A DNA stretch of 64,000 nucleotides from a phage. Shown piece by piece: positions 41,677 through 46,568 of this stretch. The stretch is taken from the NCBI GenBank assembly GCA_024975835.1, contig GCA_024975835.1_4840.1, one strand, 5' to 3'. How positions within the stretch are numbered: the stretch's first letter is position 1; every line of letters begins with the position of its first letter. A program made the translations under genes and the position numbers. The notes under the pieces were generated by a model. That model had not been told where the DNA came from. It did not search any database and saw only the letters and a list, made by a program, of their open reading frames with translations.

Positions 41677-42336
41677 TTATTTCTTGAATAAACGAAGGAA
41701 CTTCATCATGTTTTCCATGAAAGTCGGCTTCTTGACCTTTTGTTTTACCGGAGCGCCCTGATCATTCAGAACACGACTGGCCGGAGGAGTAGGTGGTGTC
41801 GGTGCTTTCGTTTCACAGGCCGGAACGATGTTCACGTCATGATGAGAAGACTCAGCTGTAGTGTTAACAACATTGTTCTCCTGGACGACAGGCTTAACGA
41901 GATTCTTTTCATACTCGCGAGCAATCGCCTGGTACTTCCGATTCTCCGCGTCAAAGTCCATAGAAACGACTTTACGACGGCGGCGCGTCGCGCTCTCATC
42001 ACCATAGAAATCGTATCCGTTCTTGACCAGCCAGTGTACAGCTTGGACAAATGAATGGAAGATCATGAACGGCTGGCCATTACCCTCTTCAGCAGCGGTG
42101 ATGCCGGAGTAGCCCATGAGCACAACCTGACCCTTTACGTCGAGGTCAAAAGATGTACATTCACCGTGCTGGTTCAGATCACGCGGAGCCAGCTGGGAAT
42201 CACGATGGATATAATTCGGCGACAAAAACTCATTCAGAGTTCGTTTGTTGCCTTTGTATTCAAACAGGCGAATACAGATGGGAGTCGTCAGTTCATGCCA
42301 TTCGGCATCGTTGACCCAGATAGAAACATTACGCAT
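41677..42336 (-). CDS. hypothetical protein
   Basis: 219-aa ORF; Pro/Thr-rich basic C-terminal tail. Confidence 0.45.
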   Translation of the reverse strand: MRNVSIWVNDAEWHELTTPICIRLFEYKGNKRTLNEFLSPNYIHRDSQLAPRDLNQHGECTSFDLDVKGQVVLMGYSGITAAEEGNGQPFMIFHSFVQAVHWLVKNGYDFYGDESATRRRRKVVSMDFDAENRKYQAIAREYEKNLVKPVVQENNVVNTTAESSHHDVNIVPACETKAPTPPTPPASRVLNDQGAPVKQKVKKPTFMENMMKFLRLFKK

Positions 42337-42428
42337 CGGTGTATCCTCAAATCAATGGATAGGGGTTTAACGGTTAAATTTTAAACCATTCTATCTCATT
42401 GAACAAATACAGAATGGGAAGGATGGAC

Positions 42429-42456
42429 AAAAGAAAGCCGGATAAGGATATCCGGC
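42429..42456 (-). terminator. intrinsic terminator downstream of tRNA cluster
   Basis: GCCGGATA-AGG-TATCCGGC hairpin followed on the minus strand by TTTCTTTT. Confidence 0.6.
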
Positions 42457-42675
42457 TATACCACATCGATGGGATGGGTTGAAAAGACTACACGCTTGCA
42501 CTGGTACTGCCTTATGGGAGAGCGCGTCAGGAGTCGAACCTGAAGTCGTCGACGTAGAGAAAGCTATTTGCATTTCACTATCCTCGCCGCGATTTTCTTA
42601 ACTTCCTAAACACCCCGATTACGAGAGAGTCGACATGCACATCTTCTAACTCTTCAGGAAGTCACGCCCGTAATT

Positions 42676-42764
42676 TGGCGGAAGGTGAAGGATTCGAACC
42701 TTCGGGGGCTAAAAGCCCCACTCGATTAGCAATCGAGTCCCTTAAACCTCTCGGGCAACCTTCC
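42676..42764 (-). tRNA. tRNA-Ser (anticodon GCT)
   Basis: Folded by hand: 7-bp acceptor GGAAGGT/ACCTTCC, anticodon stem CTCGA/TCGAG with loop TTGCTAA, long variable arm, T-loop GGTTCGAATCC, encoded CCA. Confidence 0.8.
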
Positions 42765-42984
42765 AATTTGGACGGGCTTCGCACCCGATTGAGCATTTGA
42801 TCTACCGTAGCCCAACTCCCCGCGCTTCTCAGCGCCGATTGGTTAACTGGCGACCAGTGCCTTCTGGTTCGATCTCCTGGAACTTTACAGGCTTTGCGCC
42901 AGACCATTTCTGGAAGTTGGGGCATCGTTTCCGATGTGGAGTCACCCCATTTTATACACAGCTGGCTGCAACGCTTACTGTGTT

Positions 42985-43068
42985 TGGTGTGAGTGGATGG
43001 ATTCGAACCACCGCGCTGTTACGGGGAGATTTACAGTCTCCTGCATTCGACCGCTCTGCCACACTCAC
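42985..43068 (-). tRNA. tRNA-Tyr (anticodon GTA)
   Basis: Acceptor GTGAGTG/CACTCAC, anticodon loop CTGTAAA, long variable arm, T-loop TTCGAAT, encoded CCA. Confidence 0.8.
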
Positions 43069-43325
43069 ATTTGGTCTGCCGCTGCGTGCTGGGCCACGCT
43101 CGAGGACATCGGCCATCCTTCCTCAGCTAATCCACGCAGCGGTAGATTTGTATCAGAGTGTCCGGTGTAGCAACCCGTGAGGTGCGCACTACTGTAGCCT
43201 CTACACTCTGAATTTGGTGGGTGTTACTATCGTCGTCTTCGGATTCCGTTCGGCTATTGGACAGAGGCTTGGAGCTTGTCGGTCGCGTACTTTATGCCTA
43301 TTCACTTTCGTTCACACCCATTGTC

Positions 43326-43401
43326 TGGCGACGATGGCAGGACTTGAACCTGCGACATATGGATTAACAGTCCACCGTTCTACCGACTGAACTACATCGT
43401 C
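43326..43401 (-). tRNA. tRNA-Asn (anticodon GTT)
   Basis: 76 nt; acceptor GACGATG/CATCGTC, D-stem GTTC/GAAC, anticodon loop CTGTTAA, T-arm GCAGGTTCAAGTCCTGC, encoded CCA. Confidence 0.85.
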
Positions 43402-43562
43402 TTGCAAATCACTATACCATATAAAGTTTATTGAACAAACATTTATTTTACAACAAACTGTATTGGCGGGGTCTGAGGCTTTTCACCTCACCTGCTGGGT
43501 TTGGCCGCCCAGCCGTTCTCTATGAGGATTCACTGTCCGGACAGCTATCCATTAAACTATCG

Positions 43563-43639
43563 CCCCTCAATATGGTGATCCTGATTGGGTTTGAACCAAT
43601 GACCAATGAATTATGAGTTCACTGCTCTAACCGACTGAG
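43563..43639 (-). tRNA. tRNA-Met (anticodon CAT; Met or Ile2 not distinguishable)
   Basis: 77 nt; acceptor GGTCCTG/CAGGATC, D-arm GCTCAGTCGGTTAGAGC, anticodon loop CTCATAA, T-loop GGTTCAAACCC, encoded CCA. Confidence 0.8.
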
Positions 43640-45033
43640 CTACAGGACCAAATTATTGTGTGACCAACCAAGGACTGTCAACCCTTTATCCCGTTTGTGC
43701 ATGATCAGTTCATACAGGCCTCTTTGTGCTGCCTCACGGCATGCGCTTCTGTTGGTCATTGGCTTACACTGTGGCCTCACAACAGGCGTTTATTTTTCCA
43801 GGGCTTTCCACTTACAAGTCTTAACCAGACCGGGATACGGGCTTGTAAGATCGGGTTGGACACAACTTTGAGGACACTGACGACGTATACGAGTCACCCA
43901 TAACAGATATTCGGATGCCAGTGTCCTCAAAGTTGCAACCAATGTCGCAACTCGCAGCTTCCATACAGAAGCAACTTGTCCTCTAACGCTCGGACCAAAC
44001 GAGGCTGGCTGGTTGATTCAGAGCCGCTGGTTGCTCCAGCAAGCATGGGTTGATAGCCCGGCAACATAGAATCACCCAAAGATGAAGAACATTCATGACT
44101 CACATCACACCACGAATGGCCTGAAAGAGAATCGAACTCTTTAAATGCTCTTCATTTTGTGAACTTGAGAATACTACGCCTGTCTCGGGTTTCCCCTTAG
44201 TTCGGCCTCCCAGTCCTCGCCGCGCCGGGTAGCTAACCCTGATGGCTCGTCTGCTACTGAGTTCTTCTTGGTGCCCACCAGTGTCCGGAATGTGTAGGCA
44301 TCGCAATCTGCAAGGCATGGTCTATTTCACCCAATGCTCTCTCAAGTTCACAAATCGAAGTGCCCTGACTCAACAGTATGGCCCAATATGCTGTTATCGT
44401 CCACCGGATTGGCCGCCCAATTTGTAGATCAACCTTTGGGTTTAAGATAAATTGTCAAGGCACTTCGATTTGTGTGCCCTTCACCTGCCAGGGATCAGGG
44501 CTGATGGCAAGACTTCGCTCACATCTTTCAAGATACTCGTGAGAATATCCTCAAAGATGTGGAGCCGTTTTAGGGAGTCGAACCCAAATGCTTGGCCAGC
44601 GCTGACCTTACATCCCATCTGACTTAGGCAACCCACCTCTGCTTACTCAGGAGCTTATCCCCTTTGGACAGTCAGATATAACGGCATTGTCGACGGGAGC
44701 TTATTAATCACACCCTCCCGTCTATTTTAGTGCGCCGAATTTGGTGATGAGGAATCGGAAGACCTCACTGACTTATAGGCTGTTACGCCGCCATCAGAAC
44801 TTCGGAATCATTAGCAGTTATTTGCTTGGTCAGTTTCTAAAAACCCGCAAAGTCACTCACAACGAAAACGAAAACCTGTTTGAGCACAAGACGCCATGTC
44901 CTGGGTTCACATCGAAGTGTTTGTCTAATGCCCAAACAGCTTTTCGTTCAGTGGGTTAACTATACTTTGTAACCCGTTATTGACAAAACCTTAAATTAAG
45001 TTGCGGTGTACTCAAGACCACCGCACTATTAAT

Positions 45034-45348
45034 CTACTTCAGCCAGCCCATGACTGCTTTGATGGTGTTGTCTGAATTAACTTCCACAGACTCAACCCAA
45101 ACAGCCTGACACGAGGCCGAGAAATTATACAGGGCATCGTAGTTCTCAAACTTCTTGTCCACCAGAGCGATGGCACGCTTCCGTCCTGAGATTTCTACCT
45201 TGGTTGAGTCTTCAGATTTCACCAGAGTGCATGAAACCCCATCCCAACCCAGTTGCTTCTGTAAATTCTCTAAATTGATCATAACTACCTCTTTGTCGAT
45301 ATTTGTTGGACATTTCCATTCGCGGACTATGTCAACACCCACCAACAT
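45034..45348 (-). CDS. hypothetical protein
   Basis: 104-aa ORF at the edge of the ORF-poor region. Confidence 0.35.
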   Translation of the reverse strand: MLVGVDIVREWKCPTNIDKEVVMINLENLQKQLGWDGVSCTLVKSEDSTKVEISGRKRAIALVDKKFENYDALYNFSASCQAVWVESVEVNSDNTIKAVMGWLK

Positions 45349-45998
45349 TTTGCCGGAACTTACGCATCCGGCCTCGCCTGTTGGTGCTCCTTCGAATCCG
45401 GGAAGATCAGTAGGAACTATGAATCAAGTTAATTCGACCAACAGGAACCTTGTTGCCCTTTGACGCAACATTATGAACCCTCTATGGAAGACTCATAATG
45501 TTGTCGGCGTGATGGAGATTAGCGCCCCCGACCTCCCCTTGTGTTGGTGTCGACTTGCCAACGGGGTGCTCTCTATTTCTGAGCTAATCACGCTGCAACA
45601 GGGAGTTTCGTTCTCCGACGGTCAAGTGCGTCCACTGACACCATGCAAGGTGGATATTGACTTATGAAGCCGGAGTCCTCGTCCTAGGACTGTGCTTGGC
45701 CTCAGCCTTTACACCGCTGGTCGCCCGACTCTTTACACCATAAAATTTACTATACTACAGCCAAGCTAATTTGAAAAGTCCTCTCCTCTTTGTGCTACAC
45801 TGCCCACAGCAGTGCGGACGAACCTTCACACAAAACCGGATGCGCCGAAGTGGGCGACTGTTTACCGGACTGATCGGGTAGACCCAGGAGAGAGCAGGTA
45901 ATCCCGATCAGGAGGATGAGGAGTAACATCATGTAAAACATAGTGTTCCCTCCCTTCCATGCAACTAACTTTACTGCAATTATTTATTGAATAAAGCG

Positions 45999-46568
45999 TT
46001 ATTTTAACACTTCTAACTTCACAATACGACGCAGAAGGTAAACATATTCGCCAGCAGCTTCATGCGTCATATAATGGGTAGAAGGTGTGGAATGAGTGTT
46101 CTGGGTTTCTTTTAATCCAACGCGTTCAGCCCAACCATTAATAGAGTTCCCATAGAAACCGATAATCGCGCCAAAATAAATACGCCCGCTTTCTGGCTCT
46201 AAAACGTAGTTGACAGTGAAGCAAATGTCAGAACGAATAGACTCCAGTTTCATACCAACACGACCTTCAGAGAATTCGTTACGAACATATAAATGACGGA
46301 AGCGATCGCGCCGTGCTTGTGATGATTCTTCCAATTCTTGTCGAAGTGAAGAAGTTATGTCAATATTAAATGAAAATGTTGGATTTCGTAAATCAGAACG
46401 GGCCAACTCTAACGCAGATTCAATAACGCGACGGAAATTGATACTTTTACCTGTCAGGCGTTTCACTTCATCGGTGATTTTTTCAAAAGGGATTTTCGTG
46501 GCGCGTTCCCCTTCGTATTTTGCTAACAAAGGAACAATGTGTTTCATGATTGCTGTGTTAATGTGCAT
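45999..46568 (-). CDS. hypothetical protein
   Basis: 189-aa ORF flanked by AT-rich intergenic DNA. Confidence 0.45.
   Translation of the reverse strand: MHINTAIMKHIVPLLAKYEGERATKIPFEKITDEVKRLTGKSINFRRVIESALELARSDLRNPTFSFNIDITSSLRQELEESSQARRDRFRHLYVRNEFSEGRVGMKLESIRSDICFTVNYVLEPESGRIYFGAIIGFYGNSINGWAERVGLKETQNTHSTPSTHYMTHEAAGEYVYLLRRIVKLEVLK

Follow-up and report, generated by a model that had tools for sequence, protein, structure and literature searches.

A phage RNA island with a candidate tmRNA-derived RNA predicted to be antisense to host tmRNA and to offer its own tag

The tmRNA-SmpB system is the main bacterial ribosome-rescue system, a drug target, and a pathway on which phages depend; to our knowledge, no RNA from an enterobacterial phage has been reported to target or rewrite it. 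The tmRNA-derived genes that are known from phages, namely those of the mycobacteriophage Bxz1 group and of Bacillus phage G together with the "TLD-only" (tRNA-like domain only) form of mycobacteriophage DS6A, are thought to act on host trans-translation, and each is either complete or restricted to the tRNA-like half. The RNA considered here, which we call the tag RNA, appears in contrast to join the messenger half to an antisense arm. It lies at 44949-44692 on the minus strand of a 64,000-nt stretch of phage DNA (contig GCA_024975835.1_4840.1 of NCBI GenBank assembly GCA_024975835.1; hereafter the window), and like it all features of the array described below are on that strand. It is the first unit of what we read as an RNA island holding four tRNAs and a series of structured RNAs; that this first RNA is tmRNA-derived, antisense to host tmRNA and the carrier of a tag of its own is a reading that the sequences lead us to put at about an even call.

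Two further groups of phage RNAs invite comparison. The lambdoid late-leader RNAs AgvB, AsxR, StxS and STnc100/PasD share a prophage niche with the tag RNA (from Q/pR' to the lysis genes) and pair with host RNA, but their targets are small RNAs (sRNAs) or mRNAs rather than, as proposed here, tmRNA, and the tag RNA differs from them in having what looks like a translatable template. No Rfam match to STnc100/PasD, AgvB, AsxR, YrlA or other curated phage or prophage RNAs was found in the window at gathering score or in 42000-46000 at E <= 10. In phage T4, the small stable RNAs "species 1 and 2" are co-transcribed with the phage tRNAs and processed by tRNA enzymes, and we know of no tag template or antisense to tmRNA in either. 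Two tRNA-like RNAs of the island, TL1 and TL2, would fit the T4 picture, with a likeness that is confined to position and tRNA-like 3' ends.

In the 2014 tmRNA census, the phages with a tmRNA are confined to mycobacteriophages, Bacillus phage G and DS6A, and enterobacterial phages have none listed (PMC4131195). A census of 2025 counted, without listing them, 79 bacteriophage sequences, using a pipeline that rejects truncated forms (PMC11915505), and prophage sRNAs of this late-leader niche were surveyed in 2026 with no mention of tmRNA. Full-text searches of the literature outside subscription journals gave no account of a tmRNA-like RNA that lacks the tRNA-like domain, nor of one antisense to tmRNA. 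The tag RNA is unannotated and, as far as can be told, undescribed.

A sub-segment of the tag RNA (about 44869-44701) matched unrelated phages, among them the lambdoid HK633, the N4-like EC1-UPM and Drexlerviridae, and aligned copies from these unrelated phages revealed a tmRNA-style tag template. In the window, the frame-setting motif AUAACU and the tag frame span 44783-44821 (minus), the frame itself running from 44815 to 44783 as GCU AAU GAU UCC GAA GUU CUG AUG GCG GCG UAA and encoding ANDSEVLMAA. It opens with an alanine resume codon, closes with a stop, and has neither a start codon nor a ribosome-binding site. In E. coli tmRNA, for comparison, AAUAGUC is followed by GCA AAC GAC GAA and so on, for the tag ANDENYALAA. 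The tag RNA thus resembles bacterial tmRNA (SsrA, RF00023) and its two-piece permuted forms (RF01849, RF01850, RF04321) in its start-less template opening GCA/GCU AAC/AAU GA, in the AUA(A/G)NN that precedes the tag, in the length of 10 codons, in a tag end of the hydrophobic-Ala-Ala type, in the placing of the stop codon in a hairpin, and in the pseudoknots that lie 3' of the template.

Comparison of copies suggests that the template is translated. A pattern scan of viral contigs gave at least 120 matches; among the matches listed there were some 80 distinct true copies, and every true copy keeps 10 codons and a stop, in the form AN[DE]xxx..A. Counted over the same distinct elements among the matches listed, the tag is ANDDVVLMAA in 26, ANEEMYLAVA in 17, ANDNTFLAVA in 12, ANDDLMLMAA in 8 and ANDSEVLMAA in 5, other tags making up the remainder. 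Among 29 distinct tag sequences, differences fall chiefly on third codon positions (1953, vs 1206 on first and 959 on second positions), the stop may be TAA, TAG or TGA, the leucine at position 7 is written CUG, UUG or UUA, and the alanine at position 10 uses all four alanine codons. Across 63 aligned sequences, no change at all is seen at U(-5), A(-4), A(-3) or the GC of the resume codon; these positions include the equivalents of U85 and A86, the frame determinants of E. coli tmRNA (PMC2481249). Conservation of the frame spans at least four phage families. All of this points to the messenger half of a tmRNA, either derived from one or convergent on it, with a template that looks translated.

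More than 100 phage contigs hold a copy of the tag RNA. Within the Ackermannviridae it is present in Kuttervirus, Agtrevirus and Taipeivirus and absent from the Dickeya Limestonevirus XF4; N4-like Gamaleyavirus, Drexlerviridae and lambdoid phages have it too. Of 5426 complete E. coli genomes, 135 carry it in a prophage, always unannotated; some of these 135 come from human and bovine sources, and one prophage copy lies between Q and the holin gene. A degenerate pattern scan of genome contigs had 2 true copies among the 120 matches listed, the rest being chance matches.

The fold is supported by covariation. At the 5' end stands H0 (44866-44949, minus), a long hairpin with a conserved stem and a hypervariable top (minimum free energy -37 kcal/mol, z = -6.5), whose stem covaries across families (GAGCA/UGCUC vs GUACA/UGUAC) while the apical 33-75 nt differ; it is missing in the unrelated 44-kb phages that we call L020-type. 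Just before the resume codon, at the position of the first tmRNA pseudoknot (PK1), is a hairpin (44821-44852, minus) with the stem UUUGC/GCAAA and an invariant loop UUUUUAGAAAC; its closing stem varies in step by family (CUUUG/CAAAG, UUAUG/CAUAA, AUUAU/AUAAU), being 78% paired with one pair changed on both sides. The stop codon is enclosed in a hairpin, GGC-GGCGUAACA-GCC (44778-44792, minus), in the position of tmRNA helix 5, which is 76% paired with two pairs double-changed. Two H-type pseudoknots follow 3' of the tag, and all four of their stems covary. Pseudoknot a (44735-44768, minus) has the stem GUGAGG/CCUCAU and a loop CCGA that pairs with a downstream UCGG, the stems being 98.6% and 88.7% paired and the second appearing as CCGA/UCGG, CCAG/CUGG, CCAA/UUGG or GUCG/CGAC. 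In pseudoknot b (44692-44734, minus), CGCAC pairs with GUGUG in the loop of the hairpin GACGGGAG...CUCCCGUC; the stems are 90.8% and 77.8% paired, the first varies as CGCAC/GUGUG, CGCAG/CUGUG, CGCAU/AUGUG and CGGAU/AUCUG, and the remaining loop AUUAAUAA is conserved. Over all helices of the tag RNA, 84.8% of cells pair, a share that falls to about 45% with slid partners; covariation scores 0.295 where the controls stay at or below 0.122, and no shuffle reached the observed values.

Hairpins of the H0 kind recur in the arrays of other phages. These "unit hairpins", CACAACAGGUAAGAGCAUU ... AGUGCUCUUUCCGUUGUG, have a conserved stem with a conserved U-U mismatch and a hypervariable 33-75-nt top, and were seen in locus L004 (2405-2520 and 2650-2760), in L012, L018 and L019 (lambdoid and other arrays) and in the window at 44949-44866. 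In several phage families such hairpins border the tag RNA as well as other modules; they may be places of processing, or may carry variable cargo. Long hairpins with T-arm cargo were also considered as permuted tRNA mimics of the Y-RNA/YrlA kind, an idea set aside for want of Rfam support and given the hypervariable apical parts.

By the test that defines a tmRNA (an acceptor stem with G3:U70, a T-arm and a 3' CCA end, either on the one RNA or on a neighbouring, base-paired piece), the tag RNA is not one. It is further distinguished from tmRNA by its size of about 190 nt without H0, by the hairpin (with no pseudoknot) that replaces PK1, by two pseudoknots after the tag instead of three, and by a 5' domain that is antisense to host tmRNA. 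The three Rfam permuted-tmRNA models match the elements below threshold (E 2e-4 to 0.1); the best, tmRNA_permuted, aligns onto the tag and scores 22.3 bits for the window's copy and 39 bits for that of L020, under its threshold of 47. Aragorn finds no tmRNA in the window, in 20 loci or in SG01, and a pattern scan around the tag RNA outside the Ackermannviridae found no 5' acceptor strand, T-arm or CCA end. SG01, a Cronobacter phage with a complete 49-kb genome, has the tag RNA in a 380-nt gap and no tRNA, tmRNA or tRNA-like match anywhere, so a tRNA-like domain encoded by the phage seems not to be needed. In L020-type phages a promoter stands directly before the conserved 5' motif, so that no acceptor strand can precede it.

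Several ways of completing the molecule were tried and rejected. As to a canonical or permuted tmRNA, the 5' GGGGCUG strand, the T-arm and CCA were sought around the tag RNA, in the H0 loop and downstream, with nothing consistent. The ACCA after pseudoknot a is not conserved as a 3' end and is the A-rich crossing loop of the pseudoknot. A two-piece tmRNA made of the tag RNA and TL2 was sought with RNAduplex on the full RNAs, which gave uninformative long gapped duplexes and no conserved site. In Enterobacter phage fGh-Ecl02 (L001 2008-2107), a recombination junction creates an acceptor pairing GGGGCUG ... CGGCUCC-A, with G3:U70 and a T-arm; this GGGGCUG...CGGCUCCA pair was discarded as a tmRNA acceptor on the ground that it spans a junction between two module types. 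The pairing is probably accidental, though it could make a chargeable alanine-type mini-RNA.

The 5' part of the tag RNA holds a conserved, target-specific complementarity to host tmRNA that exceeds composition-matched controls; the interaction itself is predicted. The anti-tmRNA domain CGUUUUCGUUGUGAGUGACUUUGCGGGUUUUUA (44838-44870, minus) is a collinear antisense of host tmRNA 67-105/108, a target that covers the 3' strand of PK1, U85/A86, the resume codon and tag codons 1-6. When the element profile was compared by nhmmer with E. coli ssrA from a RefSeq genome, the best match was on the reverse strand. Three phage motifs, which are the most conserved 5' motifs of the element, make up the complementarity: (GA)UAGUUUUCGU(C) faces tmRNA 96-107 (tag codons 3-6), GCGAC(U) faces 86-91, a stretch that takes in A86 and the resume codon's first two bases, and UUGCGGNUUUUUA faces 68-81, the PK1 3' strand. 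The window's duplex with tmRNA has an RNAduplex energy of -36.9 kcal/mol, reached by 0 of 300 dinucleotide shuffles. For fourteen representatives, drawn from all families, the energy lies between -32 and -40 kcal/mol and the site is tmRNA 67-105/108 every time, where their shuffles average -20 to -29 kcal/mol and 0-8 of 300 reach the observed value; among 1500 natural 363-nt decoy targets, with three variants of the element, none reached the value for tmRNA. In a sliding-window scan of the RNA island, the anti-tmRNA domain ranked first of 674. The target is the same in E. coli, Salmonella and Klebsiella ssrA; a Salmonella tag ANDETYALAA, which would put a mismatch in the duplex, was considered and dropped, given that the Salmonella ssrA sequence encodes ANDENYALAA.

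These structural and comparative facts are solid; the mechanism that seems to us the likeliest, a swap of tags, is a hypothesis. The two putative island promoters (44986 and 43681) and the terminator (42457) would allow host-type transcription of all units, and cuts of the tRNA-processing type at the tRNAs and tRNA-like RNAs would probably free the small RNAs. The tag RNA would then nucleate on the single-stranded tag region of host tmRNA and invade PK1; the pairing would cover the host resume codon and A86 and open the phage RNA's own upstream hairpin, leaving the AUAA-GCN template single-stranded about 22 nt from the intermolecular helix. In such a hybrid the host would supply the alanyl-tRNA-like domain and SmpB and the phage would supply the message, with the outcome that rescued ribosomes would append the phage tag (ANDSEVLMAA here; LMAA, LAVA or LAAA endings) in place of ANDENYALAA. 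The structure of PK1 and the coding sequence of tmRNA can be altered without loss of ribosome rescue (PMC2481249), which makes a substitution of the template conceivable. That a phage or prophage RNA reprograms host trans-translation in trans, with an intermolecular helix replacing PK1 and its own template swapped in, is a tentative proposal, based on sequence comparison, toward which we lean somewhat less than halfway.

A number of points weigh against this proposal. We know of no precedent for trans-translation from a template on a second RNA, the geometry of the hybrid on the ribosome is conjectural, and a translating ribosome could simply melt the short blocks of duplex and go on to read the tag of the host. 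The expression, processing and tagging activity of the tag RNA are all predictions. The C-terminal tag codons overlap the stop-codon hairpin, so part of their conservation may be structural rather than coding. The complementarity of the third antisense block (GCGG/CCGC) is partly automatic, following from homology and from the element's own hairpin; the H0 stem sequesters part of the antisense motif in most phages; and the lead of the anti-tmRNA domain in the sliding-window scan is only 2.4 kcal/mol. As acceptors supplied by the phage, TL1 and TL2 are poor candidates, since both are without G3:U70.

The explanation that survives best beside the template swap is that the tag RNA is purely an antisense inhibitor, which would bind host tmRNA and block or destabilise it, with the tag-like part untranslated and serving for self-pairing or stabilisation or simply left over. 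The complementarity to tmRNA 67-108 is the best-supported of the features acting in trans, and the "TLD-only" tmRNA of mycobacteriophage DS6A inhibits tmRNA, which shows that phages do interfere with the pathway and that an incomplete tmRNA is able to act on the host's (PMC4131195, PMC11915505). A partner strand, however, needs no exact 10-codon frame, no switching of stops among TAA, TAG and TGA, no synonymous changes in leucine and alanine codons, and no invariant frame-setting nucleotides. Nor does the tag region look like a partner for the 5' domain: each of 63 sequences pairs more strongly with host tmRNA than with its own tag region (means -34.4 vs -17.7 kcal/mol), and the antisense motifs stay constant while the element's own tag codons vary, which argues for pairing with the host molecule and not within the element. 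On this evidence inhibition alone seems rather unlikely to be the whole function.

A split phage tmRNA, in which the tag RNA would work with a tRNA-like piece from the phage (TL1, TL2 or their equivalents) and independently of host tmRNA, has to be weighed in the light of the tRNA-like units themselves. TL1 (44560-44685, minus) directly follows the tag RNA; as read from sequence and an alifold consensus, it has a closing helix GCCGUU/AACGGC, two internal arms, a T-arm GGG-UUCGACU-CCC and U-CCA, the fold being a proposal because its 13 homologues are too similar for compensatory change. TL2 (42515-42669, minus), of about 155 nt, starts 6 nt after tRNA-Ser and consists of a 7-bp acceptor stem GGGCGUG/CGCGCUC, a 7-bp helix A, a hairpin with the conserved hexaloop GUGCAU, a hairpin GAAAUGCAAAUAGCUUUC, and a 3' end with the T-arm UCAGG-UUCGACU-CCUGA and then U-CCCA; 10 of its 35 consensus pairs are compensatory, in the acceptor stem, helix A, hexaloop hairpin and T-arm. 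TL1 and TL2 appear to mimic tRNA ends, and these two units and the tRNAs probably double as punctuation for processing. Units with a T-arm and CCA lie directly 3' of the tag RNA in Ackermannviridae (TL1), in the L020-type phages (where a TL2 homologue adjoins the tag RNA) and in N4-like phages, and the Rfam tmRNA T-loop matches fall on such units (weakly within TL1, at 44573-44585), as a split molecule would have it. But SG01 has the tag RNA with no tRNA-like gene in its complete genome, Aragorn and the TLD pattern scan found none in the HK633-type locus, neither TL1 nor TL2 has the G3:U70 pair, no conserved pairing between tag RNA and TL2 was found, and the sole pairing of the GGGGCUG type, in fGh-Ecl02, looks like an accident of recombination. 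We therefore find a split tmRNA improbable.

Three side observations concern these units and the tag RNA. The TL2 apical hairpin (42555-42572) and its L020 homologue contain AAAUGCAAAU, and a 9-mer, AAAUGCAAA, is common to this hairpin and to the resume-codon context AUAAAUGCAAAC of most tag RNAs (the window copy reads AUAACUGCUAAU), which could be coincidence or a trace of common tmRNA descent. In Gamaleyavirus, N4-like tRNA-like units of about 68 nt (L005 2950-3020; also L056 and L060) stand 3' of the tag RNA and have a 7-bp acceptor stem, a T-arm and A-CCA, with no normal D or anticodon arm; an example is UCCGGUG...UCUGGUUCGAGUCCAGA CGCCGGA A CCA, and Aragorn does not call them. An N4-like viral contig (L043 2821-3573) has two sub-threshold group I intron matches (30-33 bits) in the tag RNA locus.

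The window belongs to a Kuttervirus-like phage of the Ackermannviridae; over the region, identity to the tRNA regions of Kuttervirus, Agtrevirus and Taipeivirus is 80-96%, with fGh-Ecl02 and E. coli phage A221 as its closest relatives. The sequence-only reading had described it as a cluster of four tRNAs with spacers of 160-260 nt followed by about 1.4 kb of structured DNA poor in open reading frames (ORFs), and this description stands. Aragorn and Rfam at gathering score agree on exactly four tRNAs, Ser-GCU (42676-42764), Tyr-GUA (42985-43068), Asn-GUU (43326-43401) and Met-CAU (43573-43649), all on the minus strand, all with an encoded CCA, and with RF00005 scores of 55-77 bits. The one with the CAU anticodon is annotated as tRNA-Ile in fGh-Ecl02 and as tRNA-Met elsewhere, and may be either an elongator tRNA-Met or a tRNA-Ile of the lysidine type. 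Their spacers measure 171, 257 and 220 nt and turn out to be conserved structured RNA rather than junk, with 5 compensatory pairs between Asn and Tyr and 2 between Tyr and Ser. Folding of 43650-45030 gives z = -8.2 against shuffles, and its longest ORFs (58-127 aa, on both strands) are interrupted in most homologous phages, which makes the segment non-coding; the small ORFs are not conserved, and the region is an array of structured RNAs.

The suggestion, made by analogy with the T4 stable RNAs, that further tRNAs or small structured RNAs had been missed is supported in its second half, the link to tmRNA and the antisense match being out of sight for a reading of the letters alone. Of further canonical tRNAs there is no sign: Aragorn and Infernal/Rfam (E <= 10, 42000-46000) return no tRNA beyond the four, and RF00005 has no match outside their genes even at that E value, so that TL1, TL2 and a further unit, M3, are tRNA-like only in acceptor or T-arm parts. 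No further Rfam family reaches gathering score in 42000-46000, the scan at E <= 10 adding only weak matches to tmRNA families. The flanking proteins have PHROG matches only to families of unknown function.

Between the tag RNA and the tRNAs, and beyond them, the array appears to be a single promoter-driven, minus-strand RNA island that takes in both the ORF-poor DNA and the tRNA spacers. A putative sigma-70-like promoter (TTGTCA, 16 nt, TATAGT; 10/12 consensus; 44953-44986, minus) lies directly upstream of the tag RNA, and equivalent hexamers stand directly upstream of the element in relatives and in the unrelated phages L020 and L093. A second putative promoter of this type (43681-43652, minus; 11/12 consensus) precedes tRNA-Met, and an intrinsic-terminator-like hairpin with a U tract (42428-42457, minus), which a terminator scan gave as a 9-bp stem followed by UUUCUUUUG, closes the array. 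Upstream, a stretch of about 450 nt (45349-45795, minus) is non-coding, with 19 homologues and 10 compensatory pairs in its consensus fold, and with it, upstream of an inserted ORF, the island comes to about 3.3 kb in total.

The three hairpins that the sequence-only reading had quoted are present in the window's sequence. One, ACAUCUUU.../...AAAGAUGU (44521-44560, minus), has a stability of z = -5.5 against dinucleotide shuffles and is conserved in sequence among relatives; the other two (43868-43932 and 43090-43150) lie within modules that show compensatory substitutions. Next in the array is M1 (44348-44482, minus; z = -6.4), a 20-bp stem CACAAAUCGAAGUGCCUUGAC/GUCAGGGCACUUCGAUUUGUG enclosing about 90 nt, with six compensatory pairs in 14 homologues. 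M2 (44161-44351, minus) is a multi-branched RNA of about 190 nt closed by GAACUUGAGA/UCUCAAGUUC, in which 15 of 50 consensus pairs are compensatory and 0.2% of cells are non-canonical. M3 (44075-44158, minus; z = -3.7) is a hairpin AUGAAGAGCAUU/AAUGUUCUUCAU with a T-arm-like AAAGAG-UUCGAUU-CUCUUU and two compensatory pairs in 6 homologues. M5 (43868-43953, minus; z = -6.5 vs dinucleotide shuffles) comprises two adjacent hairpins, including TTGAGGACACTG/CAGTGTCCTCAA, and M6 (43650-43867, minus) is a structured segment that ends in the second promoter; each has six compensatory pairs.

It might be supposed that all this is debris, a set of decaying tRNA and tmRNA pseudogenes and mobile hairpins that do nothing except space or help process the four tRNAs. 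An alignment of nine relatives does reveal a mosaic in which modules are swapped, inserted or lost, pseudo-tRNAs are annotated in relatives, and TL1 offers no informative variation. Set against this, double substitutions have left the base pairing of M1, M2, M5, M6, TL2 and the Asn-Tyr spacer intact, and the tag RNA persists in unrelated phage families and in prophages with its reading frame preserved and compensatory changes in its helices; we give the idea of decay little credence. Very improbable indeed is a micro-ORF or leader peptide, a "tag" translated in the conventional way to regulate downstream genes, for although the frame is conserved and the lambdoid prophage element sits in the late-operon leader between Q and the holin gene, the frame starts with GCA/GCU, has no AUG, GUG or UUG and no Shine-Dalgarno sequence, has as its sole nearby AUG one that is in another frame and missing from the window copy, and opens with the same GCAAACGA and upstream AUA(A/G) as tmRNA.

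The mosaic make-up brings with it a number of local additions. At various junctions the relatives have extra tRNAs, pseudo-tRNAs, HNH endonuclease genes and an STnc100-family RNA. A 104-aa ORF that has an upstream region of its own (45034-45348, minus) is an insertion specific to this phage, all nine relatives in the comparison being without it, and has no PHROG match; at the same spot some relatives, for example EP75 (L007 2436-2502), have a degenerate "tRNA-Ala"-like element. The STnc100-family RNA (RF02076, 54 bits) is inserted in the arrays of Klebsiella Taipeivirus (L002 3085-3299, L003 2900-3114) at the equivalent of window position ~43955; the family is known from Salmonella and E. coli prophages, and the insertion links the arrays of virulent Ackermannviridae to the late-leader sRNA arrays of lambdoid prophages. 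A stretch of 49 nt (43805-43853, minus) is 96% identical to the unrelated 144-kb Klebsiella phage KP13-26 and may be a shared small module.

For phage biology, the island illustrates that the tRNA clusters of large phages, where they have long spacers, can be dense arrays of structured RNA that present annotation pipelines miss altogether. The tag RNA has gone unannotated in phages of the therapeutic type (Kuttervirus, Taipeivirus, N4-like phages and Drexlerviridae) as well as in the late-leader region of lambdoid prophages. If the proposed swap of templates is true, truncated proteins in infected cells and lysogens would receive a C-terminal tag chosen by the virus and with it a different proteolytic fate, and the tag RNA would provide the first natural case of a "template swap" on tmRNA as well as of an antisense RNA directed at it. 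If the pairing with tmRNA is real, it would mean viral control over the fate of truncated proteins and over the load on ClpXP, and would offer a natural design for programmable tag switching.

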